A program made the position numbers and the translations under genes. Of a stretch of 64,000 nt of DNA, positions 31,868 to 64,000 are shown one piece after another. The DNA lies in NCBI RefSeq assembly GCF_021730395.1, contig NC_069364.1, positions 83,531,972 through 83,595,971 of the forward strand, in the 5' to 3' direction. The notes under the pieces are model-generated. The model saw nothing but the letters and a program-made list of their open reading frames with translations, was not told where the DNA came from and did no database searches. This DNA is from Mercenaria mercenaria. Its lineage: Eukaryota. Each line of letters opens with the position of its first letter. Position 1 is the first letter of the stretch.

Positions 31868-33552
31868 AGCTCACCTGAGCAATGCTCAGGTGAGTTTTTC
31901 TGATCACTCGATGTCCGGCGTCCGTCGTCTGTCGTCCGTCGTCTGTCAACATTTAGCTTGTGTATGCGATTGAGGCTGTATTTTTTTAATTAATCTTCAT
32001 GAATATTGGTCAGAATGATAACCTTGATGAAATCTAGGCCGAGTTCGAAAATGGGTCATCTCGGGTCAAAAACTAGGTCACTAGGTCAAATCAAAGAAAA
32101 ACCTTGTGTATGCGATAGAGGCTGTATTTTTCATTTAATCTTCATGAATATTGGTTAGAATGATTGCCTTGATGAAATCTAGGTCGAGTTCGAAAATGGG
32201 TCATCTCGGGTCAAAAACTAGGTCACTAGGTCAAATCAAAGAAAAACCTTGTGTATGCGATAGAGGTGGTATTTTTCAATTAATCTTCATGAATATTGGT
32301 CAGAATGATAACCTTGATGAAATCTAAGCCGAGTTCGAAAATGGGTCATCTGGGGTCAAAAACTAGGTCATTAGATCAAATAAAAAAAAAACCTTGTGTA
32401 TGCGATAGAGGCGGTATTTTTCAATTGATCTTCATGAATTTTGGTCAGAATGATTGCCTTGATGAAATCTAGGCTGAGTTCGAAAATGGGTCATCTGGGG
32501 TCAAAAACTAGGTCACTAGGTCAAAACAAAGAAAAACCTTGTGTATGCGATAGAGGCGGTATTTTTCAATTGATCTTCATGAATTTTGGTCAGAATGATT
32601 ACCTTAATGAAATCTAGGCCTAGTTCGAAAATGGGTCATCTGGGGTCAAAAACTAGGTCACTAGGTCATATCACGTAAAAACCTTGTGTATGCGATAGAG
32701 GCTGTATTTTTCAATTGATCTTCATGAATTTTGGTCAGAATGATTGCCTTGATGAAATTTAGACCAAGTTCGAAAATGGGTCATCTGGGGTCAAAAACTA
32801 GGTCTTTAGGTCAAATCAAAGGAAAACCTTGTGTATGCAATGAGGCTGTATTTTTCAACTGATCTTCATGAAATTTAGCCAGAATGATTACCTTGATAAA
32901 ATCTAGGCTGATTTCAAAAATGGGTCATCTGGGGTCAAAAACTAGGTCACTAGGTCAAATCGAAGAAAAACATTGTGTATGCAATAGAGGATGTATTTTT
33001 CAATTGATCTTCATGAAATTTGGTCAGAGTGATTGCCTTGATGAAAACTAGGTCGGTTTTGAATATGGGTTATCTGAGGTCAAAAACTAGGTCACTAGGT
33101 CAAATTAAAGAAAAATCTTGTGTATGCGATAGAGACTGTTTTTTTCAGTTGATATTTATGAAATTTGGTCAGGTTGATTGCCTTAATGAAATCTAGGTCG
33201 AATTTGGATATGGGTCATCTGAGGTCAAAAACTAGGTCACTTGGTCAAATCAAAGAAAAAACTTCTGTAGGTGATAGAGGCTGTATTTTTCAGTTGATCT
33301 TCATGAATTTTGGTCAGAATGATTGCCTTGATAAAATCTAGGTCGAGTTTGAACATGGGTCATCTAGGGTCAAAAACTAGGTCATATCTAAGAAAATGCT
33401 TGTTTTATCGCAAGAGACCAATTTTTTGGTCCAATCTTAATGAAAATTGGTCAGAATATTTGTTTCCATGAAATCACTAGGTCAAACATGTTTTACACTG
33501 TTATGGAGTGTTTCTTAGGTGAGCGACCTAGGGCCATCTTGGCCCTCTTGTT
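31868..33552 (+). mobile_element. Helitron-like non-autonomous element with a ~145-bp x ~10 internal satellite
   Basis: The 5' end is AGCTCACCTGAGCAATGCTCAGGTGAGT (palindrome), then GATCACTCGATGTCCGGCGTCCGTCGTCTGTCGTCCGTCGTCTGTCAAC. The array has unit ...CCTTGTGTATGCGATAGAGGCTGTATTTTTCA...GGTCAAAAACTAGGTCACTAGGTCAAATCAAAGAAAAA. The 3' end is GGTGAGCGACCTAGGGCCATCTTGGCCCTCTTGTT followed by a T run. Confidence 0.5.
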
Positions 33553-33614
33553 TTTTTTTTTTACCACCAACCCTGAACTTTTTATCAGGGGGTAATTTTC
33601 CACCTGTCTGTTTT

Positions 33615-36010
33615 TATGCCCCCGAAGGGAGGCATATTAGTTTTCAACTGTCCGTTCGTTCGTTCGTTAGTTTGTTAGTTCGTTCGTTCGTCACAATGTT
33701 AACTTTTTGCTCCACCCAGGACCTTCAAACTTCACATGCTTATAGTACTTATTGAGTACACCACCCCTACTGACTTTGGGGTCACCAGGTCAAAGGTCAA
33801 GGTCACAGGGGTCAACGTTAACTTTTTGCATGAAGGCACTTTACTCGTGAACCACTGCACCCAGGACCTTCAGACTTCACCTGCTTATAGTACTTATTGA
33901 GTACACCACCCTTACTCACTTTGGGGTCACCAGGTCAAAGGTCAAGGTCACAGGGGTCAACGTTAACTTTTTGCATGAAGGCACTTTACTCGCGAACCAC
34001 TGCACCAAGGACCTTCAAACTTCACATGCTTATAGTACTAATTGAGTACACCAGCCCTACTGACTTTGGGGTCACCAGGTCAAAGGTCAAGGTCACAGGG
34101 GCCAACGTTAACTTTTTGCATGAAGGCACTTTACTCGCGAACCACTGCACCCAGGACCTTCAAACTTCCATGCTTATAGTACTTATTGAGTACACCACCC
34201 TTACTGACTTTGGGGTCACCAGGTCAAAGGTCAAGGTCACAGGGGTCAACGTTAACTTTTTGCATGAAGGCACTTTACTCGCGAACCACTGCACCAAGGA
34301 CCTTCAAACTACACATGCTGAAAGTACTTATTGAGTACACCACCCCTACTGACCTTGGGGCCAACAGATCAAAGGTTAAGGTCACAGGGGCCAACGTTAA
34401 CTTTTTGCATGAAGGCACTTTACTCGCGAACCACTGCACCCAGTACCTTCAAACCTCACATGCTGATAGTACTTATTGAGTACACGGTCCCTACTGACTT
34501 TGGGGTCACCAGGTCAAAGGTCAAGGTCACAGGGGCCAACATTAACTTTTTGCATGAAGGCACTTGACTCGCCAACCACTGCACCCAGGACCTTCAAACT
34601 TCACATGCTGATAGTACTAATTGAGTACACCACCCCTTCTGACTTTGGGGTCACAAGGTCAAGGTCACAGGGGCCAACGTTAACTTTTTGCATGAAGGCA
34701 CTTTACTCGCAAACCACTACACCCAGGACCTTCAAACTTCACATGCTGATAGTACTTATTGAGTACACCACTCCTACTGACTTTGGGGCCACCAGGTCAA
34801 AGGTCAAGGTCACAGGGGCCAACATCAACTTTTTGCATGAAGACACTTTACTCGCGAACCACTTCATCCAGGACCTTCAAACTTTACATGTTGATAGTAC
34901 TTTATGAGTGCACCAACACTACTGACATTGGGGTCACCAGGTCAAAGGTCAAGGTCACAGGGGCCAATGTTAACTTTTTGCATGAAGGCACTTTACATGC
35001 GAACCACTTCACCCAGGACCTTCAAACTTCACCTGCTGATAGTACTTATTGAGTACACCACCCCTACTGACTTTGGGGTCACCAGGTCAAAGGTCAAGGT
35101 CACAGGGGTCAATGTTAACTTTTTGCATTAAGGCACTTTACTCGCGAACCACTGCACCAAGGACCTTCAAACTTCACATGCTGATAGTACTTATTGAGTA
35201 CACCAACCCTACTGACCTTGGGGCCAACAGATCAAAGGTTAAGGTCACAGGGGCCAACGTTAACTTTTTGCATGAAGGCACTTTACTCGCGAACCACTGC
35301 ACCCAGTACCTTCAAACTGCACATGCTGATAGTACTTAATGAGTACACCATCCCTACTGACTTTGGGGTCACCAGGTCAAAGGTCAAGGTCACAGGGGCC
35401 AACATTAGTTTTTTGCATGAAGGCACTTTACTCGCGAACCACTGCACCCAGGACCTTCAAACTTCACATGCTTATAGTACTAATTGAGTACACCACCCCT
35501 ACTGACTTTGGGGTCACCAGGTCAAAGGTCAAGGTCACAGGGGCCAACATTAACTTTTTGCATGAAGGCACTTTACTCGCAAACCACTGCACCCAGGACC
35601 TTCAAACTTCACGTGCTGATAGTACTTATTGAGTACACCACTCCTACTGACTTTGGGGCCACCAGGTCAAAGGTCAAGGTCACAGGGGCCAACATCAACT
35701 TTTTGCATGAAGACACTTTACTCGTGAACCACTTCACCCAGGACCTTCAAACTTTACATGTTGATAGTGCTTTATGAGTACACCAACACTACTGACTTTG
35801 GGGTCACCAGGTCAAAGGTCAAGGTCACAGGGGCCAATGTTAACTTTTTGCATGAAGGCACTTTACATGCGAACCACTTCACCCAGGACCTTCAAACTTC
35901 ACCTGCTGATAGTACTTATTGAGTACACCACCCCTACTGACTTTGGGGTCACCAGGTCAAAGGTCAAGGTACTGCGGGGACATTTGTCACTATCAGTGAC
36001 AGCTCTTGTT
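33615..36010 (+). mobile_element. Helitron-like element with a 145-bp x ~16 satellite array (33690-35990)
   Basis: The 5' end is TATGCCCCCGAAGGGAGGCATAT (hairpin), then GTCCGTTCGTTCGTTCGTT. The array period is 145 bp, with CACCAGGTCAAAGGTCAAGGTCACAGGGG at 33783, 33928 and so on. The 3' end is GTCACTATCAGTGACAGCTCTTGTT. The stacked overlapping ORFs (MSTPPLLTLGSPGQRSRSQG...) are frame-rotated repeat artefacts. Confidence 0.45.
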
Positions 36011-36117
36011 TAAAAATATTTCCGTTTCATTTTAGGGGGCCTGCTGAAAATTATAGAAGAGTTATAAAAATTAAATTTAAAATATTGGCTTGCAGGTTTA
36101 TGTTTTTAGCTCACCTG

Positions 36118-37359
36118 TCACATAGTGACAAGGTGAGCTTTTGTGATCACCCTTTGTCCGTCGTCTGTGCGTGCGTCCGTCCGTCAACAATTTCTTGTCT
36201 GCGCGATAGTGATTTCATTTATGATTTTATTTTAACTAAACTTGCACACAACTTGTATCACAATAAGATCTTGGTTCCTTTTTTGAGATTCCTTTATGGG
36301 TTCCAGAGTTATGGCCCCTGATACGGCCAGAATTAGCTATTTGACCTTGTCTGCACAATAGCAGCTTCATTTATGATTTGAATTTAATCAAACTTGCACA
36401 AAACTTGTGTCACCGTAAGATCTCGGTTCCTTTCTTGAACCGGCCAGATCCCATAATGGGTTCCAGAGTTATGGCCCCTGAAAGGGCCATAATTAGCTAT
36501 TTTGACCTTGTCTGCACAATAGTAGCTTCATTTATGATTTGATTTTAACCAAACTTGCAGACAACTTGTACCACCACAGGTCTTGCTTCCTTTCTTGAAT
36601 TGGTGAGATTCCATCATGGGTTCCAGAGTTATGGCCCCTTAATGGTCCAAAATTGGCTATTTTGACTTTTGTAGCCATATAGAGACTTCATTTATGGTTT
36701 TATTTGATACAAACTTCCAAAATATCTTCAACAACAATAAATCTTGGATTCCATGACAAATCAGATCCAATCGTAGGTTCCAGAGTTATTTTATATCTGA
36801 TTACCTCCCCTGATTGTAATCAAAATGGATTTAGATCAGTAAGTACTTATAGGACTTATTTGAAATTTCATTATTGTTATTAGTTGGACTGAGACAATCA
36901 GGGTAGATAACTATGGACTGATATTATGTCAAATTACCTCCCTTTATTTCAAATTAAAATGGGTATATCTCCATAACTAATGAAGATACTGATCTGAAAT
37001 TTCATTTATGTCAACAGATTTATTTGGCAGATCCTTCTTTTGTTCACTTACAGTATATATTTTTTTTTAATTACTTCCCTTTTACATTACTATAAATAGC
37101 TTATTTTTAGTAACTTTTTTATTATTGGCCATAGGGAAAAACCGAGACCACTTTTCTGTGGTACAACATGGATGGTACCTCCAATTTTTAGGTGTATTTT
37201 GACATATCTATACCTTGTAAGATTTTTTTTTTTTTTGGTTAAATTTCTTCCCTTTGTTGTTCCTGTCCTTTCGACTTAGATATTTTTTCTGAGGAACTTC
37301 TTGTCCTCGAGTGCAGTGATTACAGGTGAGCAATATAGGGCCATCATGGCCCTCTTGTT
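36118..37359 (+). mobile_element. Helitron-like element with a ~162-bp x 3 satellite plus the shared ~700-bp 3' module
   Basis: The 5' end is AGCTCACCTGTCACATAGTGACAAGGTGAGCT, then TTTGTGATCACCCTTTGTCCGTCGTCTGTGCGTGCGTCCGTCCGTCAACAATTTCTTGTCTGC. The array unit is TGACCTTGTCTGCACAATAGCAGCTTCATTTATGATT...GGTTCCAGAGTTATGGCCCCTGAAAGGGCCA. The 3' end is CAGGTGAGCAATATAGGGCCATCATGGCCCTCTTGTT. Confidence 0.5.
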
Positions 37360-39312: not shown

Positions 39313-40891
39313 AGCTCACCTGTCACATTGTGACAAGGTGAGCTTTTGGGATCACCCTTCGTCCGTCTTCAGTCCGTGCGTCCGTCCGTGCGTCCGTCAA
39401 CAATTTCTTGTCTGCATGATAGTGGTTTCATTTATGATTTTATTTTAACCAAACTTGCACACAATTTGTATCACTATAAGATCTCGGTTCTTTTCTTGAA
39501 CTGGCCAGATCCCATTATGGGTTCCAGAGTTATGGCCCCTGAAAGGGCCAAAATTAGCTATTTTGACCTTGTCTGCACAATAGCAGCTTTATTTAAGATT
39601 TGATAGTTACCACACTGGCAAACAACTTGTATCACCATAAGATCTTGGTTCCTTTCTTGAACTGGCCAGATTCCTTTATGGGTTCCAGAGTTATGGCCCC
39701 TGAAAGGGCCAGAATTAGCTATTTTGACCTTGTCTGCACAATAGCAGCTTCATTTATGATTTGATTTTAACCAAACTTGCACACAACTTGTATCACTATA
39801 AGATCTTGGTTCCTTTCTTTAACTGGTGAGATTCTATTATGGGTTCCAGAGTTATGGCCCCTGAAAGGGTCAGAATTAGCTATTTTGACCTTGTCTGCAC
39901 AATAGCAGCTTCATTTATGATTTGAATTTAATCAAACTTGCACAAAACTTGTGTCGCCATAAGATCTCGGTTCCTTTCTTGAACTGGCCAGATCCCTTAA
40001 TGGGTTTCAGAGTTATGGCCCCTGAAAGGGCCAAAAGTAGCTATTTTGACCTTGTCTGCACAATAGTAGCTTCATTTATGATTTGATTTTAACCAAACTT
40101 GCACACAACTTGTATCATCACAAGATCTTGGTTCCATTCTTGAACTGGCCAGATTCCATCATGGGTTCCAGAGTTATGGCCCCCTAAAGGTCCAAAATTG
40201 GCCATTTTGGCTTTTGCAGCCATATAGAGACTTCATTTATAGTTTTATTTGATACAAACTTCCAAAATATCTTCAACAACAATAAATCGTGGATTCCATG
40301 ACAAATCAGATCCAATCGTAGGTTCCAGAGTTATTTTATATCAGATTACCTCCCCTGATTGTAATCAAAATGGATTTATATCAGTAAGTATTTATACGAC
40401 TTATTTGAAATTTCATTATTGTCATTAGTTGGACTGAGACAATCAGGGTAGATAACTATGGACTGATTTTATGTCAAATTACCTCCCTTTATTTCAAATT
40501 AAAATGTGTATATCTCTGTAACTAATGAAGATACTGATACGTCAACAGATTTATTTGGCAGATCCTTCTTTTGTACACTTGCAGTAATTTTCTTTTTAAT
40601 TACTTCCCTTTTTCGTTACTATAAATAGCTTATTTTTAGTAACTTTTTTATTATTGGCCGTAGGGAAAAACCGAGGCCACTTTTCTGTGGTAAAACTTGA
40701 ATGGTACCTCCAATTTTTAGGTGTATTTTGACATATCTGTACCTTTAAAGAATTTTTTTTTTTTTTTTGGTTAAATTTCTTCCCTTTGTTGTTCCTGTCC
40801 TTTCGACTTAGATATTTTTTCTGAGGACCTTCTTGTCCTCAAGTGCAATGAAAACAGGTGAGCGATATAGGGCCATCATGGCCCTCTTGTT
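39313..40891 (+). mobile_element. Helitron-like element, 162-bp satellite family, ~5 monomers
   Basis: Same ends as the 36118 element: AGCTCACCTGTCACATTGTGACAAGGTGAGCT at the 5' end and CAGGTGAGCGATATAGGGCCATCATGGCCCTCTTGTT at the 3' end. Same 3' module. Confidence 0.5.
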
Positions 40892-40953
40892 TAGCATTGT
40901 TTTTATGCACAGGTTCAGTAACTCTACGTATTTACAAAAGTATGCCCCTTTTT

Positions 40954-42383
40954 AGCTCACCTGCCACATAGTGACAAGGTGAGCTTTTGTGATCACCCTT
41001 CGTCCGTCGTCAGTCCGTGCGTGTGTCCGTCCATCAACAATTTCTTGTCTGCACAATAGTGGTTTCATTTATGGTTTTATTTTAACCAAACTTGCACTAC
41101 ACTTGTATCACCATAAGATCTTGGTTCCTTTCTTGAACTGGCCAGATCCCGTTATGGATTCCAGAGTTATGGCCCCTGAAAGGGCCAAAATTAGCTATTT
41201 TGACCTTGTCTGCACAGTAGCAGCTTTATTTATGATTTGATTTTTACCAAACTGGCAAACAACTGTATCACCATAAGATCTTGGTTCCTTTCTTGAACTG
41301 GCCAGATTCCTTTATGGGTTCCAGAGTTATGGCCCCTGAAAGGGCCAGAATTAGCTATTTTGACCTTGTCTGCACAATAGCAGCTTCATTTATGATTTGA
41401 ATTTAATCAAACTTGCACAAAACTTGTGTCACCATAAGGTCTTGATTCTTAAGTTGAACCAGCCGGATCCCTTAATGAGTTCCAAAGTAATGGCCCCTGA
41501 AAGGGCCAAAATTAGCTATTTTGACCTTGTCTGCACAATAGCAGCTTCATTTATGATTCGATTTTAACGAAACTTGCACACAACTTGTATAAACCACAAG
41601 ATCTTGGTTCCTTCCTTGTACTGGCCAGATTTCTTCATGGGTTCCAGAGTTATGGCCCCTTAAAGGTCCAAAATTGGCTATTTTGACTTTTGCAGCCATA
41701 TAGAAACTTCATTTATAGTTTTATTTGATACAAACTTCCAAAATAACTTCCAACAACAATAATTCTTGGATTCCATGACAAATCAGATCCAAACATAGGT
41801 TCAGAGTTAATTATTTTATATCTGATTACCTCCCCTGATTGTAATCAAAATGTATTTATATCAGTAAGTACTTATAGGACTTATTTGAAATTGCATTATT
41901 GTCATTAGTTGGACTGAGCCAATCAGGGTAGATAACTATGGACTGATTTTATGTCAAATTACTTCCCTTTATTTCAAATTAAAATGGGTTTATCTCTGTA
42001 CCCAATGAAGATACTGATCTGAAATTTCATTTATGTCAACAGATTTATTTGGCAGATCCTTCTTTTGTTCACTTACAATAATTTTTTAATAATTACTTCC
42101 CTTTTACGTTACTATAAATAGCTTATTTTTAGTAACTTTTTTATTATTGGCCGTAGGGAAAATCTGAGACCACTTTTCTGTGGTACAACATGGATGGTAC
42201 CTCCAATTTTTATGTGTTTTTTGACATATCTGTACCTTGTAAGAATTTTTTTTTCTTTTTGGTTAAATTTCTTCGCTTTGTTGTTCCTGTCCTTTCGACT
42301 TAGATATTTTTTCTGAGGACCTTCTTGTCCTCAAGTGCAGTGATAACAGGTGAGCGATATAGGGCCATCATGGCCCTCTTGTT
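40954..42383 (+). mobile_element. Helitron-like element, 162-bp satellite family, directly downstream of the previous copy (52-bp gap)
   Basis: AGCTCACCTGCCACATAGTGACAAGGTGAGCT at the 5' end; GGCCATCATGGCCCTCTTGTT at the 3' end. Confidence 0.5.
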
Positions 42384-52544: not shown

Positions 52545-54465
52545 CGCTTCGTCCATCCATTATCTGTCCGTCCTGCAATTCTTGTCAGGAGTATTTCTCA
52601 CCAACCACTGGTTGGAGTTTAGCCATACTTCATAGGATGGTTCATCATCAAGGGAGATATGCATTTTTAGCTCGACTATACGAAGTATAAGGAGAGCTAT
52701 CCTACTCGCCCCGGCGTCTACGTCGGCGTCGGCATCTTTCCGCGTCCCCACCTTGGTTAAAGTTTTGGTGCACTTTCTCTTTTTTCAACTTATCTCTGTA
52801 ATTACTTGATGGATTTGATTCAAACTTGAAATACTTATTCCTCATCATCATCCACATCATCTAAGCAATACTGTAGTACAATATTTCATGAATTATCCCC
52901 CCTTATCACATAGATTTTAAGGTTAAATTTTGATGCACTTTCACTCTATCTCTGTTATTACTGAATGGGTTTGATTCAAACTTAAAATAGTTGTTCAACA
53001 TCATCACCCACATCATATGACACAAGATGCATAACTTTGGCACAAGTTTTCATGAATTATTCCCCTTTTTACTTAGAATTTCAGGTTAAAGTTTTATGCA
53101 CTTTCACTCTATCTCTGTTATTACTGAATGGATCTGATTCAAACTTAAACAATTGTTCAACATCATTACCCATATCATATGACACAAGGTGCATAACTCT
53201 GGGACCAGTTTTTTCATGAATTATTTCCCCTTTTTTTAGAATTTTAGGTTAAAGTTTTGATGCACTTTCACTCTGTCTCTGTTATTACTGAATGGATTTG
53301 ATTCAAACTTAAAATAGTTGTTCAACATCATCACCCACACCATGACACAAGGTGCATAACTCTGGCACCAATATTTAATGAATTATGCCCCTTTTTGTTT
53401 AGGATATACTTATATAGTGTTTTGATACATTTTATCTTTACCTCTCTTATTACTTTAAGTTGACATTTTTGACATAGACTCAGGCTATTGTGCAATATCT
53501 TCATCCACAATTGGAGTCATTAAACACTCCAGTGACAGCTCTAGTTTCCCCAGATGTGCCCAGTTTCACTATCCAGCATCGAAATAGTTGAGCGCGCTGT
53601 CTCCTGTGACAGCTCTTGTTATTTTCATGTTCCGGTCGGATGATTTTTCACAAAGTTATTTCCCTTGATAATACTATAGTTCAATTTTTGTCCAGAATGC
53701 TTCTCAGCAACCACTGGTTGGAATTTAGCCATACCTCATAGGAAGGTCTATCATCAAGACAAGATGCGCATATTTTTTGTATTCGTATTCTGGTTGGATT
53801 ATTTTTCACAGACTTATTGCCCTTTGATTTTTCAACAACAATGCTATATTGTAGTTCAATTTTAGTATTTCTCAACAAAACTGGTTGGAATTTAGCAAAA
53901 CTTCGTAGAAAGCTTCACTATCCAGAGATGAGTATATTGTCTTAGCATTCTGGTCAGATGATTTTTCACCAAGTAATTGCCCTTTGATTATTCAACATTA
54001 GTATACTACAGTAGAGTACCTGTAGCAACCACTGGTTCGAATTTAGCCAAACGTCATAGGAAGCTTTACTATTAAGTGGATATGTGCATATTGATTTCGT
54101 GTTTCGGTCGAATTTATTGATTTATTGCCCTTTGATTATCAACAATAAGCAATACTGTAGTACAATTTTTTGTGCAGAGTACTCCTTGGCAACCACTTTA
54201 AGGAATTCATTATCATCGGGGAAGCTTAAATCACAAAAGGAGATGTGCATATCGTTTTTATGTTCAGGTCGGAAGATTTTTCACTGAGTTACTGCCCCTT
54301 TTAGTATTGAACATAGTTTACTGTAGTACAATTTCTTGTCCGGAGTATTCCCCAGCAATCACTGGCTGAAATTCCTTGAAACTTCATAGGAAAGTTCACT
54401 TCCAATAGGAGATGTGCACATTATCTTCGTGTTTGGTTGAGATGATTTTTACTGAGTTATTGCCT
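52545..54465. repeat. ~168-bp tandem satellite (about 6 monomers) interrupted by the element at 52669-53620
   Basis: The monomer ...CAACCACTGGTTGGAGTTTAGCCATACTTCATAGGA...GAGATATGCAT...TTTTTCAC... has 0.7 copy at 52545-52668 and about 5 copies at 53625-54465. Confidence 0.6.
52669..53620 (+). mobile_element. Helitron-like element (AGCTCGACTAT... 5' end, ...GACAGCTCTTGTT 3' end) with a ~170-bp x 4 internal array, inserted into a T-run of the 168-bp satellite
   Basis: The 5' end is AGCTCGACTATACGAAGTATAAGGAGAGCTATCCTACTCGCCCCGGCGTCTACGTCGGCGTCGG. The 3' end is TAGTTGAGCGCGCTGTCTCCTGTGACAGCTCTTGTT. The flanks GCATTTTT and ATTTTCATGTTCCGGTCGG rejoin as a normal satellite monomer. Confidence 0.5.
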
Positions 54466-54469
54466 TTTT

Positions 54470-56518
54470 AGCTCACCTGTCACATAGTGACAAGGTGAGC
54501 TTTTGTGATCACCCTTCGTCCGTCGTCAGTGCGTCCGTCCGTCAACAATTTCTTGTCTGCACGATAGTGGTTCCATTTATGATTTTATTTTAACCAAACT
54601 TGCACACAACTTGTATCACCATAAGATCTCGGTTCCTTTATTGAACTGGCCAGATCCCATTATGGGTTCCAGAGTTATGGCCCCTGAAAGGGCCAAAATT
54701 AGCTATTTTTGACCTTGTCTGCACAATAGCAGCTTTATTTATGATTAGATTTTTACCAAACTGGCACACAACTTGTATCACCACAAGATCTTGATTCCTT
54801 TTTTGAACTGGCCAGATTCCATTATGTGTTCCAGAGTTATGGCCCCTGAAAGGGCCAGAATTAGCTATTTTGACCTTGTCTGCACAATAGCAGCTTCATT
54901 TAGGATTTTATTTTAACCAAACTTGCACACAACTTGTATCACTATAAGATCTTGGTTCCTTTCTTGAACTGGCGAGATTCCATTATGGGTTCCAGAGTTA
55001 TGGCCCCTGAAAGGGCCAGAATTAGCTATTTTGACCTTTTCTGCAAAATAGCAGCTTCATTTATGGTTTGAATTTAATCAAACTTGTACAAAACTTGTGT
55101 CACCATAAGATCTTGATTCATTAGTTGAACCGGTTAGATCCCATAATGGGTTCCAGAGTTATGGCCCCTGAAAGGGCCAAAATTAGCTATTTTGACCTTG
55201 TCTGCACAATAGCAGCTTCATTTATGATTCGATTTTAACCAAACTTGCACACAACTTGTATCACCACAAGATCTTGGTTCCTTTCTTGAACTGGCCAGAT
55301 TCCTTCATGGGTTCCAGAGTTATGGCCCCTTAAAGGTCCAAAATTGGCTATTTTGGCTTTTGCTGCCATATAGAGACTTCATTTATCGTTTTATTTGATA
55401 CAAATTTCCAAAATAACTTCAACAACAATAATTCTTGGATTCCATGACAAATCAGATCTAAGCGTAGGTTCAGAGTTTTTTCATATTGGATTACCTCCCC
55501 TGATTGTAATCAAAATGGATTTATATCAGTAAGTACTTATAGGACTTACTTGAAATTTCATTATTGTCATTAGTTGGACTGAGCCAATCAGGGTAGATAA
55601 CTATGGACTGATTTTATGTCAAATTACCTCCCTTTATTAACCAGGTTTTCAACGAAAACCCGAGTTATTAGATTGGGATATGTCGTTGGTCGGGCAGGCG
55701 GGCGGCGGCGGCATCAAACTGGTGTTTCCGGTCAATAACTTTCGTTTCGGTAAAGGTATTTGAATAAAACTTGGTATGTATGTAGCTTATATCAAGACAA
55801 AGGCTGGGATTGATTTTGGGGTTTCTGGGGTCAAGGTCAAGGTCACTGTTACTTAAAATAGAAAAAGGGTTTCCGGTCAATAACTTAACTTAGGAATGAG
55901 CTATCATAATAAAACTTGGTGTATAGAAAACTTATATAAAGTTGTAGCTTGGGATTGATTTTGGGGTTTCTGGGATCAAGGTCAAGGTCATTGTTACTAA
56001 AAATAGGGTTAGGGTTGTGCTTTAAAGTGGTGCACTGTGATTCAGTATACTTTTTTATTCTTATGAAAAGTGTTGAAAACCTGGTTTCGTGGCATTGCCG
56101 TGTTTCTTGTTTCAAATTAAAACGGGTATATCTCCGTAACTAATGAAGATACTGATCTGAAATTTCATTTGTCAACAGATTTATTTGGCAGATCCTTCTT
56201 TTGTTCACTTACAATAATTTTTTTTTAATTACTTCCCTTTTATGTTACTATAAATAGCTTATTTTTAGTAACTTTTTTATTATTGGCCATAGGGAAAAAC
56301 CGAGACCACTTTTCTGTGGTACAACATGGATGGTACCTGCAATTTTTAGGTGTATTTTGATATATCCGTACCTTGTAAGAATTTATTTTTCTTTTTGGTT
56401 AAATTTCTTCCCTTTGTTGTTACTGTCCTTTGGACTTAGATATTTTTTCTGAGGACCTTCTTGTCCTCAAGTGCAATGATAACAGGTGAGCGATATAGGG
56501 CCATCATGGCCCTCTTGT
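54470..56518 (+). mobile_element. Helitron-like element, 162-bp satellite family, carrying a nested insertion
   Basis: The 5' end is AGCTCACCTGTCACATAGTGACAAGGTGAGCT. The 162-bp array runs 54560-55350. The 3' module is interrupted at 55639-56111. The 3' end is CAGGTGAGCGATATAGGGCCATCATGGCCCTCTTGT. Confidence 0.5.
55639..56111 (+). mobile_element. ~470-bp nested insertion within the 3' module of the previous element
   Basis: The intact module in other copies reads CCTCCCTTTATTTCAAATTAAAATGGG. Here the reading is CCTTTATT + AACCAGGTTTTCAACG...GTTGAAAACCTGGTTTCGTGGCATTGCCGTGTTTCTTGT + TTCAAATTAAAAC. The insert has a 14-bp inverted repeat (ACCAGGTTTTCAAC versus GTTGAAAACCTGGT), a 2 x ~150-bp internal direct repeat, and a CTTGT 3' end inserted at T^T. 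Confidence 0.4.
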
Positions 56519-56579
56519 AATTATTCAACATTAGTAAACTATAGCGCCATCAGTTGATTCCACTTTTGTTCTTTTAATA

Positions 56580-56790
56580 TGTAACTAGAGCTGCTTTTGA
56601 GAAAAGCACGTCTCCCACAACTGCCTAATCATCTGAATAGTAAAAAAAAGTATACTTCAGGAGTAAGTTTTGGTTCAGTAATTCAAAGGCCCACTCCCAC
56701 AACTGCCTAATCAGCTGAATAGTAAAAAAAAGTACACTTCAGGAGTAAGTTTTGGTTCAGTAATTCAAAGGCCCACTCGGTTCAGTAAGT
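56580..56790. repeat. Tandem duplication 2 x ~92 bp
   Basis: CTCCCACAACTGCCTAATCA(T/G)CTGAATAGTAAAAAAAAGTA(T/C)ACTTCAGGAGTAAGTTTTGGTTCAGTAATTCAAAGGCCCACTC occurs twice. Confidence 0.6.
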
Positions 56791-57563
56791 TTTGGTTTAG
56801 TGATTCAAAGAGGACTAGAGTTTAGTGAGTCTAGGTGGACTAGGATGAATGGTTCAGTAATTTTTGGTCAAGGGCCATAATTCCAAAGTGCCTGGGCCGA
56901 TTTGGCTAGTTATAGAACTTGGCCGAGGACTTATTGGCAAGCACATTTTGTTCAAGTTAAGTGAAGATTGGATGAGAAATGATTGACTTAAGAGTGCTGA
57001 CAAGATTTGTGACAGACAGACTGACAGACACAAAGCATCCATCGGTTTTACTGATATTTTCCTGTTTTATAAAGTTACATTTTGTACAGGTGACAACATT
57101 TTAAATAAACAAAAGGTAAATTCAGATGCCTTCTGCTTTATCCTAGCTGTTAATGAAAGGCATTCAGGTACACAACAGTTGCCATTAAACAGAAAATAAA
57201 TCTACCAAAACCCGCCATCACGTCTCAAGGCTTTGATTTTATGCCCCTACCATTAAAAATGGTGCACAGTGGGCATATAGTGTTGCCCCTGTCCTTGGAA
57301 TGTGTATGTTTGTCCGTGCGCAAAATTATGTCTGGTCCATAATTTTGTTGTTTTATTAGGTCAGACTTTAAAATAACTTGGCAAAAATTACCACCACAAC
57401 ATGACCATGTGTAGCATGCAAAATCCAGACCTCACATCTTAAAGGTCGAGGTCACACATTTAGGTCAAATATTTTTCATGTAATTCTGCTTGTCCAGTCT
57501 ATAACTTTTATAAGAAGTGAAGGATATTCAAGTATCTTGGCACAAAAATAAACCATAAATAGA

Positions 57564-58200
57564 ACAAGAGCTGTCAGTGGACAGCGCGCTCGACTATTCT
57601 CAGTGCTTGATAGTATAATATAAGCTATGAGTAAAACTATAACATTACAATAAGCATATTCTAAGTTGAAAAGGTGCCATAATTCAGTCAAAATGCTTGA
57701 TAGAGTTGTCTCCTCCTTTTTACAGACTGGGGTGGTGATGGTAAACAAGTATGCAAAATATCAAAGCAATATCTCAATGGACTAATATCGCAAACTTTAA
57801 CATTTATTCCAAGTCAAAAAGGGGCCATAACTCAGTCAAAATGCTTGATGGAGTTGCCTCCTCCTTTTTACAAACTGGGGTCGTGATGGTAAACAAGTAT
57901 GCAAAATATCAAAGCAATATCTCAATGGACTTTGAAAATATTTGGGGTGGTACGCAAACTTTAACATTTATTCTAAGTCGAAAAGGGGCCATAATTCAGT
58001 CAAAATGCTTGACAGAGTTGCCTCCTCCTTTTTACAGACTGGGGTCATGATGGTAAACAAGTATGCAAAGTATCAAAGCAATATCTCAGTGGACTGAAAA
58101 TATTTGGGGTGGTACGCAAACTTTAACATTTGTGTGATGCTCACGCCGGGGCGAGTAGGATAGCTCCCCTATTCTTCGAATAGTCGAGCTTAAAATGTGT
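57564..58200 (-). mobile_element. Minus-strand Helitron-like element (AGCTCGACTATTCGAA family) with a ~150-bp x 3 array, nested inside another repeat-bearing element (57235-58500)
   Basis: The reverse complement of 58140-58200 reads AGCTCGACTATTCGAAGAATAGGGGAGCTATCCTACTCGCCCCGGCGTGAGC. The reverse complement of 57564-57600 reads GTCGAGCGCGCTGTCCACTGACAGCTCTTGTT. The surrounding sequence starts with a TTATGCCCCTACC...GGGCATAT hairpin at 57235. The satellite unit GGTCAAGGTCAC...TTTTTCTTGTCCGGTCTATAA...TATTCAAATAACTTGGCA occurs on both sides of the insert. Confidence 0.4.
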
Positions 58201-60418
58201 TGCAGCAAGACTTGCATCCCTAGCTAAAAAGGTCAAGGTCACCCTTGCAGTCATTACTTCATTTTTCTTGTCCGGTCTATAAATTCAGTGTTTTTATATT
58301 TAAAGAACAGATAGATATTCAAATAACTTGGCATAAACTTCCATTATAAGAAGTGGTGTCAGATCTAATACTTAGACCCCTAGCTTAAAGGTCAAGATCT
58401 CGCTCAAGTCAAAGATGTTGCGTCATTTTTTTTGTTATCTAGCCTGCAACTATATAGTCATGGGATTATATTCAAATAACTTGATACAAACTTATAACAT
58501 CACAAGGGGATATAACATTTAATCACTCAACGGTGAAATGAATATTTATGTTAATTTTACTTTTTAAGTCCACAAGTTCAGTATACGTTTTCTACCGTGA
58601 AAATACCATTGCAGGACTTGAACTTCTGTGTCCTGTCATTTCATAGTTTGGGCATCCGTGTCCTATGGACACATTTCTAGGTTTCTTTATGTAAAAATAC
58701 AGTAGGAAAACATGAAAGGTGATTTGAAGAAGTCATAATAGCTAAAAGACTCTTTGATGAATTCAGTCATCGTTACAAGCCACAATATAATTTCTGGAGT
58801 TATGCTGAAAATACGATTCTATCATAATCTCCCTCTTTAAGGTTTGGACTGTTCTATATACTTTGATTTTTATGAAATACCAGAAAATAATGAAGAGTTC
58901 AAGTTGGTTGGATTAAGTCGAAATTCCAGTCCAACTTTACAACAATCAGTAAAAGCGGAACAGTCCATCTGAACAACACAGTCAAGCAATTTTCCTTTTC
59001 ATATACTTTTATTAACCAATTTGAAGGAAAATGAACAAAATATGCAGAAAAGAAACAGCACATTCGTGGAAAAACACAAAATACGAGTAATAACAAAAGC
59101 AACACAGAAAGTTGCAATTGCATATAAACATATAATTTACATAAACAGGCACAGAAAAAATAAATCTGAATAAATGCATTTCATTCCTGAACAATGACAG
59201 TGTTTTTTAACCAGATAATAAATTTATTAAGTATTCTACAACCTGACTGACTAACACTCGAGAAAATAATGAAACACTCATAACAACAAGCATTCACACA
59301 AGAAATAAACTATAAACTTTACACAAAAAGATATAAAACAAAATTAATTAAGTAATAAGGAGATTTAGATAAAGTGTATCAAAACACTAAATAAGTATAA
59401 TTCTAAGCAAAAAGGGGGCATAATTCATAAAATATTGGTGCAAGAGTTATGCACCTTGTGTCATATGATGTGGGTGATGATGTGGAAGAACTACTTCAAG
59501 TTTGAATCAAATCCATTTAGTAATAAGAGAGATAACTTTGAATGTTGATAAATATTCATGGAAAGTTTGATATAAAAAAAATGAAAAGATGAAAAAAAAA
59601 ATGTGTGTGTGGGGGTGGGGGTGGGGGGGGGGGGGGGAGTTGACACAACTTCACATCTTGATAATAAATGTTCATGGAAAATGAAAGAAGTTTCATGAAA
59701 TTCTACCAATTGGTTAGTTTATTATGTACAAATATGTGGACTCTTAAAAAATTGAAGGGCAATAACTCTGAAGTTTCTAAAGAGATCCTAACGAAATTTT
59801 GTGTGCACTACCACATTATGGTGACCTAAATTCAATTTAAGTTTCATAGTTCTAGGTCAAATATGTCACAAGTTATTAAGTAGACATTGCCATATTTATA
59901 GTACCCTATATTGTTACTAGAAACTACTAAGGGCCATAACTCTGGTGTTACTTGGGCAATCTGACTGAAACTTGACAGGCCCCATTTCCCTATAGTGGTG
60001 AACATGTATATGAAGTTTAATTAAAATATTACAAACCATTTCCTAGATATGACTCCAGATGGACAACGCCAAAACTATATCCCTCCGCCTTCGGCAGATT
60101 ATAATAAATAAGTTAACAGTACAATTATATATTTACACACATCAAGTATGAGGATCATAGATGAAAGCATTCTGAGGTTACTCAGCAAAACCTATGCCAA
60201 AATCATCACTTATGGTGATTAATACCCTCAGATGAAACTTTGATATAAAAATCTTTAATAAGAATATGAAGCAAGCATAAATTTAAGCTACCGGTATATT
60301 ATTTTTGACCTTAAGTTTGGACCTAATGACCTGGGATGAGCATTCAGCATGCCATCTGGATAAGGTTAACAGTTGATGCTAATTTTATGAAATTTATTCT
60401 ATTGATATGAAGACTTAA

Positions 60419-61559
60419 ACAAGAGGGTCATGATGACCCTGGATCGCTCACCCGAGTTATATGAGCTACATGTTTCAAATGTCAAACGGATGCTAAAATA
60501 TTAAGAAAGTAGGTCAGTAGGTCAAATTCATGGTCATTGAAAGTCTGTTTTAAGATCAGTATGCAAAACTGTACATGTCATCCAAATTTCAAGGCTCTAT
60601 CTTAAAAAAACAAGAAAGTAGGTCAAGGCCACAGTCAAGTGACTCCTTATCATTTTGGGTCATCAGGTAATTATCATTAAACAGTCTAGGAAATATGACC
60701 TGATAATTTTTTAAGTATTTTTTCCTATATAACTCATAAACAAGTGACCCCCAGAGTGGGGCCTCTTTTAACACAAAGGGCATAATTTGAACAATCTTGT
60801 TAGAGATCCACTAGGCAATGCTACATACCAAATATCAAAGGCCTAGGCTTTGAACTTTCAGACAAGAAGATTTTTAAAGTTTTTTCCTATACAAGTCTGT
60901 GTAAAACTTGGGACCCCTAGGGCAGGGCCTCTCTACCCCAGGGACATAATTTGAACTATTTTGGTAGAGGAACACAAGGCAATGCAACATACCAAATATC
61001 AAAAGCCTATGCCTTGCAGTTTCAGGCAAGAAGATTTTTTAAAAAAATTCATATATAAGTCTATGTAAGATTTGGGACCCCCTGGGTGGGGCGTCTTTTC
61101 CACTCAGGGGCACAATTTGAACAATCTTGGTAAAGGACCACAGGGCAATGCCACATACCAAATATCAAAGGCCTAGGTCTTGTGGTTTCAGACAAGAAAA
61201 GTTTAAAAAAATTTTCCTTTACAAGTCTATGTAAAACTTGGAACCCCCGGGACAGGGCCTCCTTTCACCCAAGGGGCACAATTTGAACAATCTTCATAGA
61301 GGACCATTAAATGATGTCACATGCCAAATATCAAGGCTCTATGCTTTGCAGTTTTGGCTATGGCAACCAGAGTTCTGCATGGATTTCAATTCTTTGGGCA
61401 ATTTTGAAAGGGGCCACCCAAGGATCATTCCTGTGAAATTTGGTGTAATTCTGCCCAGTGGTTTCAAGAAGATTTTTTTTAGAAATTGTTGACACACTAC
61501 GCACGACAGACATCAAGCAGTCACAAAAGCTCACCTTGAGCCTTTGGCTCAGGTGAGCT
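60419..61559 (-). mobile_element. Minus-strand Helitron-like element with a ~150-bp x 5 satellite
   Basis: The reverse complement of 61520-61559 reads AGCTCACCTGAGCCAAAGGCTCAAGGTGAGCTTTTGTGACTG. The reverse complement of 60419-60460 reads CTCGGGTGAGCGATCCAGGGTCATCATGACCCTCTTGT. The internal unit is GGGACCCC(C/T)AG(A/G)G(T/C)GGGGCCTC(T/C)TT...GGGCA(C/T)AATTTGAACAATCTTG...ATACCAAATATCAAAGGCCTAGGC. Confidence 0.5.
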
Positions 61560-62879
61560 AAAAACTACTTGATCTTTGACCTCTGTGCTATTAACTTTAG
61601 ACTTTATGAATTGGGTCATGTGCTTTGCATGCCATCTTGATGAGGTAAACAACTGACACTAGTTTTAGAAAAATATTTCAAGCAGTTTAGACAATAAGGA
61701 GCAGAAACCGTATCAGAAATGAACTTTGACATTGGAACTAGTGACCTGCGTTGAGTTCTCTACACACTGTCTCCATGTGGAATATAACTGATCCCAATTT
61801 TATGAAAATCTTTCCAGAAGTTTAGACAAAAAGGAGCAAAGTCAAAATTAAGTTTTTTGACCTCGGACCTAAAAATAAGATGTAGACCTTGGACCAAGTG
61901 ACTGGCATGTCTGCTATGCACGTCATCTTGATGAGGTTAATTATAAATGGTAAATATGGAGAAAACCTGATGGGCAGATAAACCAGTGGATGGAAGGACA
62001 TGCAGGACTCCAATAAAACCCCATATACTTCTACTTTTAGGCATAATAATAGTCATTAAAGTGTATGGACGTTCAGTTTTACTACCTAAGATATGAAATT
62101 TTGCTTTTAACATAATATTTGCAATCTTGTTGTAACAATAACATCTACTCATCTTTACAAATTACTGCTTCAAGTCTAACACCAACAAAATATTTACAAT
62201 CATTACATTTTTAATCTATCCTGGTTATTACATTATTTTTTTTTCAGCAAAATAATTTGAAATATTATAATTTCGAAATTACAATTTTAATTTCCCAAGG
62301 TCAGATTCCAATTTCTTACATGGCCTAGTCTTCCTTGGGGGATGGTAGGATTGTACTGCTGGTTTCCATAGTAACCATGTTGTTGTGGAAAATGACCAAA
62401 TTGCCGCTGGTTGCTTCTACTTCAAGACCTGTCAATGAGAACTTTATAAGACATGTTTTTATCGTACACAAAGTTAACTCTAACAAGGCATATATCCTAA
62501 ATTATAATGCAAGATGAGCATATCCACGGACGAAGTTGTAATACTGTCAGACTATTAAATCAGCGGTTGTGAGATTCTGTTCTCTTTTTCACAAAGTTTT
62601 AAGTTAACTTACCTTCTTATATTCCTTTATATATTATTATTATTACGACATCCATGAAAGTGTGAATACTTAAGAGTCAGCAAATAGAAGAACTCATGCA
62701 CGATCACAGTTTATACAAGAGCTTTGCAAAGCGGGGCAATATATGCCTGACCTACTAGATCAGAGGAGGAGGATGTTTTAAAAGAATTTTTTTCTTGGGT
62801 GTGCGTGTGTGGTATGGGAGGGGGATGTAATGTGGCAGCAGGTAGGGGAGATGGACCTTTGATATACAGACCACCTTTA

Positions 62880-63490
62880 TGCCAAGTTAATACCCTTAAT
62901 GGTTATCAAATGCTCTGCACAAAATATGATGAACATATTTGACCTTGCTGTGATCTTGACCTTGACCTACAAACCTGGTTCATGCACTCATATGCCAAGA
63001 TTGAAGTCATTACCTTGAATGGTTATCAAGTTATGCTCTGCACACAAAATATGACAGACAGATTTGACCGTGACCTTTGACCTGGTTCATGCACTCTGCA
63101 CATCGTCTCATTGCCACCTACCTATATGCCAAGATGCAAATACCTTGAATGGATACTGAGTTATGCTCTGGATATGAAATATGAAGGGCAAATTTGACTT
63201 TTGACCAACCAACCTGCTTCATGTGCTCTGCACTTCGTCTCATTGCAACCTACCTCTATGCCAAGTTTAAAGTAAATACCTCGAACCATTGTCAAGTTAT
63301 GCTCTGGACACGTAATATGAAGGGCAAATTTGACCTTTTGAGCTCATTTGTGGCTTTGACCTTGGACCTACCGACCTGCTTTATGTGCTCTGCACATCTT
63401 CTCATTGCCATCTACCAATTTGTCAAGTTTAGTCTATACCTTGAATGGTTATTGAGTTGTGCTCCGGACACAAATATGATGGACTGGCAG
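62880..63490. repeat. ~120-bp tandem satellite, about 5 copies
   Basis: The unit TGACCTTGACCT...CTGGTTCATGCACTCTGCACATCGTCTCATTGCCACCTACCTATATGCCAAG...ATACCTTGAATGGTTATCAAGTTATGCTCTG recurs. It is preceded at 62718 by ACAAGAGCTTTGC, a possible minus-strand 3' terminus. Confidence 0.55.
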
Positions 63491-63522
63491 ACGGACATAT
63501 GTGCCGTCACATGTCCATTTTT

Positions 63523-64000
63523 AGCTCACCTGAGTTCGAAGTACTCAAAGGTGAGCTTTAGTGATCGCCCTGTGTCTGTCGTCAACAATTTGACCGTTAA
63601 CACTCTAGAGGTCACATTTTTGGCCCAATCTTAATGAAACTTGGTCAGAATGTTACCCTCAATAAAATCTTGGACGAGTTCGATATTGGGTCATCTGGGA
63701 TCAAAAACTAGGTCATCAGGTCAAATCAAAGGAAAAGCTTGTTAACACTCTAGAGGTCACATTTTTGGCCCAATCTTAATGAAACTTGGTCAGAATGTTA
63801 CCCTCAATAAAATCTTGGACAAGTTTGATATTGGGTCATCTGGGGTCAAAAACTAGGTCATCAGGTCAAATCAAAGGAAAAGCTTGTTAACACTTTAGAG
63901 GTCACATTTTTGGCCCAATCTTAATGAAACTTGGTCAGAATGTTACCCTCAATAAAATCTTGGACGAGTTCAATATTGGGTCATCTGGGGTCAAAAACTA
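63523..64000 (+). mobile_element. Helitron-like element, 5' part; continues past the window end
   Basis: The 5' end is AGCTCACCTGAGTTCGAAGTACTCAAAGGTGAGCT, then TTAGTGATCGCCCTGTGTCTGTCGTCAACAATTTGACC, then a ~120-bp array (...GGTCACATTTTTGGCCCAATCTTAATGAAACTTGGTCAGAATG...). Confidence 0.45.

Follow-up and report, generated by a model that had tools for sequence, protein, structure and literature searches.

What are the tandem arrays that crowd one half of a 64,000-nucleotide stretch of the hard clam (Mercenaria mercenaria) genome on contig NC_069364.1, and how did so many come to lie together? We refer to the whole stretch as the window and number positions from its first letter. We are highly confident that the arrays are carried by non-autonomous Helentron-type (Helitron2-type) rolling-circle transposons of M. 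mercenaria, of the kind called HINEs. As defined in earlier work, a HINE has a 5' subterminal inverted repeat (subTIR), a complementary inverted repeat (IR) 1-22 nt from it, a microsatellite, central repeats of fixed orientation, and a 3' subTIR followed by a palindrome (PMC7492417, PMC4067079). Insertion is at a TT or T-rich target without duplication (PMC7492417, PMC4067079), and in several oyster families the microsatellite is GTCY, GTCC or GTCK (PMC7492417). A preliminary description of the clam DNA, made from the letters alone, had seen Helentron-derived satellite carriers in it. That assignment was borne out: the elements have a 5' subTIR with its IR, a GTCY microsatellite, central repeats, a 3' subTIR with its palindrome and T-run insertion, and they are non-coding.

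Counts and coverage given here refer to the 32.1-kb segment 31868-64000; extra copies lie at 1263-2202, 3319-3975 and 14186-15242. About 20 HINE elements or fragments were found in the segment, and HINE-derived DNA makes up 20.5 kb (64%) of it. At least 12 elements of common architecture had been claimed; the architecture stands, its motifs being far above chance, while the count rises to about 20 because many copies are nested. Each element begins at a T-run with a palindrome-like 5' end and continues with a CGTC, GTCC or CGTT microsatellite, a tandem array and sometimes extra unique sequence; the 3' part consists of a short inverted copy of the 5' end, a hairpin and a CTCTTGT tail. The start right after a T-run applies throughout, all 5' flanks being T-runs of 2-12 nt, and the GTC-rich tract reported behind the 5' end is likewise present as the CGTC/GTCC/CGTT tracts, which the arrays follow. 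The 5' ends are of the types AGCTCACCTG..CAGGTGAGCT, AGCTCGACTAT.., ATGCCC..GGGCAT and AACCAGGTTTTC...

The motif TTTWAGCTCRMCT, with one mismatch allowed, has 12 matches against 0.73 expected, a number reached in 0 of 100 shuffles, and GAGC-N14-24-CTCTTGT has 11 matches against 0.21 expected, with no shuffle as high; the G+C content of the window is 32-47%. Tandem Repeats Finder reported 16 tandem arrays with periods of 136-170 bp across the window. The periods of arrays lying exactly between termini are 136, 145, 157, 161, 163-166 and 170 bp, and the arrays comprise 2 to 15.6 monomers of 136-181 bp in constant orientation relative to the element ends. No tRNA or Rfam match was obtained in scans of the window, so that SINE-like (short interspersed element) or structured-RNA readings have no support and were rejected.

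Families were drawn from an all-against-all comparison of the elements, which have at least six terminus types (A, B, C, D, ATGCCC-type and E13):

Family A: E3, E4, E5 and E9, 91-93% identical, with a 161-bp array and a ~660-bp module; E7 (68-75%) is an old relative.
Family B: E1 and E6n, 82-83% identical, with a 145-bp array; the very homogeneous array of E10 is related (74-78%).
Family C: E8, E12, HB and the copies at 1263-2202 (-) and 3319-3975 (-), with AGCTCGACTAT-type ends.
Family D: D1, D2 and HA, with the 3' hairpin GCACCCGCAAGG.GTGC.
ATGCCC-type: E2, E14, E15, E16 and H3, a looser group.
E13 type: E13 only.

The copies themselves are as follows, E3 being the representative copy:

1263-2202 (-): complete family-C-like HINE; 5' end AGCTCCACTATTCGGATAATAGGG, GGCGTCGGTGCC microsatellite, 170-bp array of 2 copies, 3' end AGTGGAGCGCGCTGTCTTACGGACTGCTCTTTTTGT.
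3319-3975 (-): 5'-truncated family-C-like copy; 164-bp array of 3.7 copies, 3' end AAGTCGAGGGTGCTGTCTTACGGACAACTCTTGT.
14186-15242 (+): E16, ATGCCC-type; 5' end TTATACGCCCGAAGGGATGTAT, 157-bp array of 4 copies, its own cognate 3' end AACCCTTCGGGCGTATA..CTCTTGT; subTIR 16/17.
31868-33551 (+): E1, family B; 5' end AGCTCACCTGAGCAATGCTCAGGTGAG, CGTC microsatellite, 145-bp array of 9.8 copies (31957-33384), 3' end CTTAGGTGAGC-GACCTA-GGGCCATCTTGGCCC-TCTTGT; flanks T12 and T11; subTIR 10/11.
33616-36009 (+): E2, ATGCCC-type; 5' end ATGCCCCCGAAGGGAGGCAT, CGTT microsatellite, array of 15.6 copies (33713-35970) whose 145-bp monomer is distinct from that of E1, 3' end CGGGGACAT-TT-GTCACTATCAGTGAC-AGCTCTTGT; subTIR 8/9.
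36108-37358 (+): E3, family A; 5' subTIR 36108-36120, IR 36131-36139, GTCY microsatellite at about 36152-36187, 161-bp array of 3.3 copies 36194-36716, family-specific module at about 36700-37310, 3' subTIR 37320-37331, hairpin GGGCCATCATGGCCC 37338-37352, CTCTTGT 37352-37358; subTIR match 11/12.
39313-40890 (+): E4, family A; 161-bp array of 5.0 copies.
40891-40953 (+): 63-bp spacer between E4 and E5; C/D-type monomer tail (..CACAGGTTC.GTAACTCT..TACAAAAGTATGCCCCTTTTT), to be compared with 43600-43664 and 46628-46656/47285-47310.
40954-42382 (+): E5, family A; 161-bp array of 4.3 copies; in the T-run immediately ahead of the D1 5' end.
42384-42862 (+): D1, short HINE; degenerate 5' end (AGCACATCTGAC..TTGTCATCACTTGATCGGCGTCGG), monomers of about 180 bp, end ..CAGCAGACAGCTCTTGT; boundaries approximate.
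42950-43418 (+): D2, D-type; 3' end AGATGAGTGTCT-GCACCCGCAAGGCGGTGC-CCTTGT (variant heptamer); matches the 3' part of HA at 86% identity.
43436-45318 (+): HA, host element; 5' end AGCTCGACTATTC.., 3' end AGATGAGCG-TCT-GCACCCGCAAGGCAGTGC-TCTTGT; interrupted by E6n.
43663-45015 (+): E6n, family B; 145-bp array of 8 copies; nested in HA after ..ATGCTCCTTTTT.
46476-47524 (+): HB, host element of the AGCTCGACTAT family; degenerate 5' end AGCTGGACAGAAGAATAGG, 3' end GAATAGTCGAGCGACAGCTTGT with the hairpin mostly deleted; interrupted by E7.
46657-47284 (+): E7, old diverged family-A relative; 5' end AAGCTAACGTGCCACTTAGTGACAAGGTGAGCT, 3' end CAGATGAGCGATATAGTGTCATCATGACCCTCTTGT; nested in HB.
52515-56569 (+): H3, old ATGCCC-type host; 5' end ATGCTCCCTGGAGGGGAAGTAT, GTCC microsatellite, diverged monomers of about 170 bp, tentative 3' end; contains E8 and E9.
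52669-53619 (+): E8, family C; 5' end AGCTCGACTATACGAAGTATAAGGAGAGCT, GCGTCG microsatellite, 163-bp array of 3.8 copies, 3' end ATAGTTGAGC-GC-GCTGTCTCCTGTGACAGC-TCTTGT; subTIR 9/10; nested in H3.
54470-56518 (+): E9, family A; 161-bp array of 5.2 copies; subTIR 11/12; nested in H3 and interrupted by E13.
55639-56110 (+): E13, own type; 5' end AACCAGGTTTTCAACGAAAACC, two 145-bp monomers, 3' end GTTGAAAACCTGGT-TTCGTGGCATTGCCGTG-TTTCTTGT; subTIR 14/14; nested in E9.
57241-58682 (+): E15, ATGCCC-type; 5' end ATGCCCCTACC..GTGGGCAT, 3' end GGGCAT-CC-GTGTCCTATGGACAC-ATTTCTAGGT, tentative because the tail is atypical; contains E12 on the opposite strand.
57564-58190 (-): E12, family C; 5' end (A)AGCTCGACTATTCGAAGAATAGGGGAGCT, 164-bp array of 2.8 copies, 3' end GAATAGTCGAGCG-C-GCTGTCCACTGACAGC-TCTTGT; subTIR 12/13.
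59360-59540 (-): isolated E8-type (family C) monomer fragment, ..AATTATGCCCCCTTTTTGCTTAG...
60419-61559 (-): E11; 5' end AGCTCACCTGAGCCAAAGGCTCAAGGTGAGCT, 166-bp array of 3.7 copies (60746-61354), 3' end CTCGGGTGAGC-GATCCA-GGGTCATCATGACCC-TCTTGT; subTIR 10/11.
62715-63518 (-): E14, ATGCCC-type; 5' end ATGGACATGTGACGGCACATATGTCC, 136-bp array of 2.4 copies, 3' end GGCATATATTGCCCCGCTTTGCAAAGCTCTTGT; the 5' end adjoins E10 across TTTT.
63523-64000 (+): E10, family-B-related and cut by the window end; 5' end AGCTCACCTGAGTTCGAAGTACTCAAAGGTGAGCT, 145-bp array with 97% matches, 74-78% identical to the E1 array.

Both orientations had been noted and do occur, the minus-strand copies being E12, E11, E14, 1263-2202 and 3319-3975. 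None of the scanned open reading frames (ORFs) of at least 120 aa within elements has a Rep/helicase or other transposase domain; the only such frames inside elements run through the satellite arrays of E2 and E14. The statement that every copy closes with a 3' hairpin, CTCTTGT and a T describes most copies, with variation in the heptamer, the next base and the hairpin type. Variant heptamers are CCTTGT at 43418, TTTCTTGT at 56110 and CTCTTTTTGT at 1263, and the base following the terminus is A, not T, behind 56518 and 62715 (-). The three hairpin types first listed do not exhaust the variety, further ones including GCTGTC..GACAGC and GTCACT..AGTGAC.

In 11 elements (E1, E2, E3, E4, E5, E8, E9, E11, E12, E13 and E16) the 5' and 3' subTIRs are complementary at 9/10 to 16/17 positions over the first 10-17 nt, and the 3' copy always lies 36-42 nt from the element 3' end. 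The inverted repeats are asymmetric: the 5' copy is terminal, whereas beyond the 3' copy lie a further 25-30 nt, made up of the hairpin and CTCTTGT and lacking any 5' counterpart. In single-strand folding, 5' ends from the AGCTCACCTG families gave -12.6 to -14.1 kcal/mol (z of -5.5 to -6.8), an example being AGCTCACCTG-N11-AAGGTGAGCT at -13.1 kcal/mol (z = -6.8); the 3' hairpins of the same families gave -7.5 kcal/mol (z of -3.6 to -4.5). Folding was weaker in the other families, a few of which showed erosion. An IR adjacent to the 5' subTIR is present, with a weaker fold in the C and ATGCCC types. The 3' stem is 5-7 bp long, is separated from CTCTTGT by 0-2 nt in most copies, and is weak in HA, E13 and E16. 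On single-stranded DNA the 5' subTIR could pair with the neighbouring IR or with the 3' subTIR, drawing the ends together.

The nested copies supply empty sites within the window itself and so give internal evidence on the insertion mechanism. E6n lies in HA, E7 in HB, E8 and E9 in H3, E13 in E9, and E12, on the opposite strand, in E15. The segment 43436-45015 had been read as one element and as a chimera; it joins the 5' end of HA to the 3' end of E6n, and is simply a nested insertion of E6n (43663-45015) in HA (43436-45318). E13 entered E9 at TATT^TCAAA, where E3, E4 and E5 are uninterrupted and read CCCTTTATTTCAAATTAAAA; E9 reads CCCTTTATT, then the element (AACCAGG...TTTCTTGT), then TTCAAATTAAAA, so that the ambiguity is limited to 1-2 Ts, with no other duplication. 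At the site where HB carries E7, HA is uninterrupted (GATTTTTTACAAAATGATGC), and HB in turn is uninterrupted (ATGCCCCTTTTTTGACTTAG) at the site where HA carries E6n. The proposed T^T insertion, for which a check against empty-site paralogs had been suggested, was therefore upheld in three in-window comparisons, each with a T-run target and only T or TT ambiguous. Empty sites without duplication, together with the T-run flanks, rule out target-site duplications of the type made by terminal inverted repeat (TIR) transposons.

The flanking T-runs are on one strand only. The element strand has 142 runs of T>=5 versus 56 runs of A>=5, compared with 164 versus 142 elsewhere in the window. The element-strand counts predict a co-oriented share of 72% among insertions into such DNA. 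In keeping with that expectation, six of seven nested insertions are co-oriented with their host, and every one of the 14 elements in the 31.8-56.6 kb interval lies on the + strand. Monomers of the A, C and D families share a conserved box, (A)ATTATG(G)CCCCTTTT (40942, 43650, 47294, 53385, 59416 (-), 6051 (-), 3871 (-) and 1503 (-)); E5 and E6n inserted into the T-run of this very box, and similar ..GC(A/C)TTTTT sites lie directly ahead of E7, E8, E9 and E10. Because insertion is T-run-polar and the element strand is rich in T-runs, old copies would be preferred same-orientation targets for new ones. We infer that such T-run-polar self-targeting would explain the dense, mostly co-oriented cluster. 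The spacer between the head-to-tail copies E4 and E5 measures 63 bp rather than the 52 bp first given and is a fragment of another HINE's monomer, a C/D-type tail, which places E4 and E5 within older HINE DNA.

Array length varies from 3.3 to 5.2 monomers between family A copies (Tandem Repeats Finder), and from these copy-number differences it follows that arrays expand and contract after, or during, copying. In a relaxed comparison, monomers of different families were linked in a network at 58-67% identity. A further string, AGGTCAAGGTCA, repeats the nuclear-receptor half-site AGGTCA in direct orientation. It is present at one copy per monomer in satellites from five HINE families (21 matches versus 0.01 expected), always on the element strand, at 14364-14846, 33794-35827, 55834-55990, 58230 and 62957 (-). 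An ancestral box and a functional site are both conceivable readings.

Do modules pass from one family to another? The preliminary description spoke of a conserved 3' module of about 700 bp and of module swapping between 14186-15243 and 36118-37359. The module exists, at about 660 bp, and is confined to family A. As for swapping, what is shared is an internal segment and not the terminus: E16 14916-15163 matches the family A module at 37019-37277 over 250 bp at 82% identity. The termini have not been swapped, each 3' terminus matching its own 5' end, and the 5' end, array and last ~80 bp of E16 are all ATGCCC-type. At the exact left edge of the family-A-shared segment E16 has an internal terminus-like site (14890-14914), consisting of the hairpin GCATTGCAATGC, CTCTTGT and a T-run. 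Nesting of E16 in a family A copy was considered and rejected: the DNA upstream of 14186 has no family A homology, so simple nesting fails to explain the mosaic. Read-through capture is a known Helitron behaviour, and by analogy the mosaic may plausibly have arisen by read-through of the 3' end past the internal terminus, stopping only at the following one; alternatively, elements may have recombined with one another. Mosaicism is therefore real but internal, and the termini remain paired.

Copies outside the clam window bear on how well the termini are kept. The 21-mer 3' terminus of families A and B, GGGCCATCWTGGCCCTCTTGT, is matched exactly in 96 contigs of several marine metagenome projects (Ga0209567, OREC01, Ga0224511, MOXF/MOXH, JACCD..), which presumably represent bivalve DNA in marine samples. 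In nearly all 96 contigs the 10-nt string CAGGTGAGCG, which was outside the query, lies 5 nt upstream of the 21-mer, and in 79 of the 96 a T comes next after the terminus. Complete elements (529-2124 bp), present in six contigs, start directly behind a T-run with AGCTCACCTGAGC..GGTGAGC. Their interiors are only 68-83% similar to the window copies; these are therefore copies from other host species, in which termini were kept far better than cargo. In the oyster Saccostrea cucullata, the end of a HINE whose cargo is a Cg170-like satellite reads GCTCAGGTATATAAGGCCCATGGGCCTCTTGT and closely resembles the clam A/B terminus. A scan of the orthologous Ank/SOCS locus of Ruditapes philippinarum gave no match to these termini.

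By analogy with Helentrons, the copies would be mobilised by a Helentron Rep/PIF1-helicase/AP-endonuclease protein supplied in trans. A nick would be made in the T-rich strand at the 5' boundary and the strand peeled off, or unwound, 5' to 3'; the 3' subTIR, hairpin and CTCTTGT would together act as the termination and cleavage signal, and the strand or circle would be integrated between two Ts. Other kinds of element share part of this picture. Short inverted repeats near both ends, and small, non-coding, numerous copies, would also be seen if the elements were tandem-repeat MITEs (miniature inverted-repeat transposable elements), that is, deletion derivatives of a cut-and-paste (DDE, TIR) transposon. 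The 3' repeat, however, is subterminal and followed by the 25-30 nt tail that the 5' end lacks, there is no target-site duplication at the E13 or E7 sites, the T-run flanks are on one strand only, and such bivalve elements have been reclassified as Helentron HINEs (PMC7492417); we consider this origin very unlikely. Non-autonomous canonical Helitrons, moved by a Rep/Hel protein without endonuclease, would account for the asymmetric rolling-circle-type ends, the 3' hairpin and the lack of duplication, and oyster counterparts are labelled 'Helitron-N' in Repbase. The clam ends, though, are (T/A)AGCTC.. or ATGCCC.. and ..CTCTTGT, not 5'-TC...CTRR-3', the target is a T-run (T^T) rather than A^T, and subTIRs, absent from canonical Helitrons, are present, which makes this, too, highly improbable. 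Finally, tandem arrays dominate the region, and the species annotation has 10.4% 'satellites' in 646,000 pieces, so one might put the locus down to local segmental duplication or to satellite DNA of the ordinary dispersed sort, with immobile arrays and with shared flanks that are mere junction sequences. But same-family copies have identical boundaries and unrelated flanks, different arrays are bounded by the same termini, and the termini recur in other species with diverged bodies; precise insertions into other elements refute an immobile origin, which we find scarcely credible.

Some observations nevertheless weigh against identifying the elements as HINEs. The T-run ambiguity leaves a 1-2-bp T duplication formally possible, as in the DINE-1 literature (PMC4067079), and the orientation argument is based on seven nested events and is not significant alone. 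SubTIRs are eroded in E6n, E7, HA, HB and E14, and hairpins or subTIRs are weak or eroded in HA, HB, E7, E14, E15 and the internal site of E16. Nor was an autonomous partner found: no Rep/Hel ORF is present among the ORFs of at least 120 aa in the window, tblastn found no Rep/Hel in the 96 terminus-bearing metagenome contigs, and no Mercenaria-labelled protein is among the best 120 Helentron-helicase homologues of an oyster helicase ORF. The C. gigas study, using ten Repbase Helentrons, likewise failed to link HINEs to an autonomous partner (PMC7492417), and for this reason the missing partner is uninformative rather than refuting.

Proteins joining a PIF1 helicase and an AP endonuclease, the Helentron signature, proved common in Mytilus, Saccostrea and fishes in the homologue searches. 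A first partner query, a 191-aa composite of published Helentron Rep and helicase motif blocks, matched only fragments of at most 335 aa, apparently a length-window effect. Three loci were inspected, two for a Saccostrea helicase fragment (L001, L003) and one for a Rep fragment (L002); they hold only fragments or a distant Helentron, without the clam ends. On L002 (ENA assembly), 6841-14954 (+) is a near-intact Helentron with OTU, DUF6570, Helitron_like_N, PIF1 and further ORFs. Its helicase shares only 28% identity with the oyster enzyme, and AGCTC../CTCTTGT ends were not observed. A check of long ORFs in the terminus-bearing contigs gave only an OTU-protease ORF, which lies outside the HINE: on contig L010, a 515-aa frame at 3043-4587 (-), directly beyond the 3' end of a HINE, encodes an OTU-like cysteine protease domain, and the contig has no Rep/Hel. 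Helentrons sometimes carry an OTU domain.

Within the HINE identification, the conservation of the ends allows a tentative further step. The same heptamer closes at least six families in the window whose subTIRs and hairpins are unrelated in sequence, and the full 35-nt A/B-type terminus, CAGGTGAGCG-N5-GGGCCATCWTGGCCC-TCTTGT, is exact in at least 96 copies from other marine hosts. It is possible, although we would not call it probable, that one long-lived Helentron transposase lineage serves many bivalve HINE families through a modular end signal, in which a near-invariant CTCTTGT beside a hairpin recognised by its shape is combined with a family-specific subTIR; T-run-polar insertion would also seed co-oriented nests and offer a route from dispersed short arrays to compound satellite blocks.

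The remainder of the window holds genes and other repeats. An intronless Ank/SOCS-box ORF at 7906-9555 (+), 549 aa, is 100% identical over its whole length to the uncharacterized M. mercenaria protein LOC123552323, which assigns the window to the hard clam, the next best match being from R. philippinarum (84%). From this gene to the next C2H2 zinc-finger gene is 6.2 kb in R. philippinarum versus ~36 kb in the Mercenaria window; the interval is inflated by LINE (long interspersed element) and HINE insertions, consistent with lineage-specific HINE accumulation. A LINE ORF of 755 aa at 26785-29052 (-) has endonuclease and reverse-transcriptase domains, and a second, frameshifted reverse transcriptase lies at 4363-6018 (-). 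At 45388-46470 (+) there is a 360-aa open frame with a 39-bp (13-codon) tandem repeat of 6.9 copies at 45618-45919 and no Pfam match. C2H2 zinc-finger ORFs follow downstream at 48114-48572 and 50043-50594, and the open frame may be an exon of the gene they belong to. Just after H3, at 56612-56778, is an 82-bp direct repeat of two copies, 97% identical. Simple repeats comprise a (GA)n/G-rich tract at 12715-12804 and a GT/poly-G tract at 59600-59640. The string ..agtgttccatattgtac.taTAGCTTggtttttgctcgaaaacgcgaacagttggcaaagaaggta occurs at 23250 (+) and 26059 (-), an inverted repeat pair around ~2.8 kb (22900-23600 versus 25700-26100) that possibly marks the ends of another transposon.

How do the clam elements compare with known systems? 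Repeat annotation of the hard clam put rolling-circle elements at 4.8% and 'satellites', in ~646,000 pieces, at 10.4% (PMC8905726), with no explanation for the dispersal of so much satellite DNA (PMC8905726). Much of this dispersed satellite may be HINE cargo, as in oysters. No description of M. mercenaria HINEs was found in the searchable literature, and a search of literature text for the terminus strings returned unrelated matches only. The defined termini provide exact search strings for annotating the families and for seeking a bivalve autonomous Helentron.

The closest likeness is to Cg_HINE of the oyster, described in 2020, whose modules come in the same order, a subTIR of 11-12 bp with an IR 1-12 nt off, a GTCY/GTCC/GTCK microsatellite, repeats of 138-181 bp in constant orientation, a 3' subTIR and a palindrome (PMC7492417). 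Like the clam copies, it inserts at T-rich or TT sites without duplication, in both orientations and frequently in other repeats, and it has unrelated arrays in related flanks, composite interiors and no linked autonomous partner (PMC7492417). Its host belongs to the Ostreida, whereas the clam belongs to the Venerida, and the likeness is one of architecture. An indirect hint of relatedness at sequence level comes only from the Saccostrea HINE, whose 3' end is similar to those of families A and B. None of six diagnostic k-mers of the window arrays occurs in the part of the published array table that covers mostly CL1 (PMC7492417). The tight same-orientation nesting seen in the clam is not described for Cg_HINE (PMC7492417).

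Among other bivalves, the elements pearl (Crassostrea virginica, Anadara trapezia), MgE (Mytilus galloprovincialis) and DTC84 (Donax trunculus) are likened to the clam HINEs by description. All three were first described as MITE-like. They have at most about six monomers of ~160 bp, conserved flanks and a microsatellite, and are now regarded as HINEs (PMC7492417). The DINE-1 elements and HINEs of Drosophila, mite and mosquito (Thomas et al. 2014, PMC4067079) resemble the clam copies in having a subTIR (theirs of 13 bp), an IR by the 5' subTIR, a microsatellite, central repeats and a 3' stem-loop, and also in their TT preference and the variable number of Ts at their boundaries. Their autonomous partners, however, are 95-98% identical to them at the ends (PMC4067079), while none is known for the clam; there is no sequence similarity between the two groups, and the clam palindrome lies 0-2 nt from a conserved terminal heptamer. 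With canonical Helitrons the clam elements have in common asymmetric ends of rolling-circle type, a hairpin within a few nt of the 3' terminus and insertion without duplication, but they differ in termini, target and subTIRs. The conservation of CTCTTGT across families with unrelated subTIRs and hairpins, the exact cross-species A/B terminus and T-run-driven co-oriented nesting go somewhat beyond published descriptions and are offered as leads, not conclusions. In sum, the clam copies are HINEs in architecture, of a kind already well described in oysters and other bivalves; they leave the current Helentron picture unchanged and extend the HINE picture to another bivalve order, with detail on terminus conservation and self-nesting.

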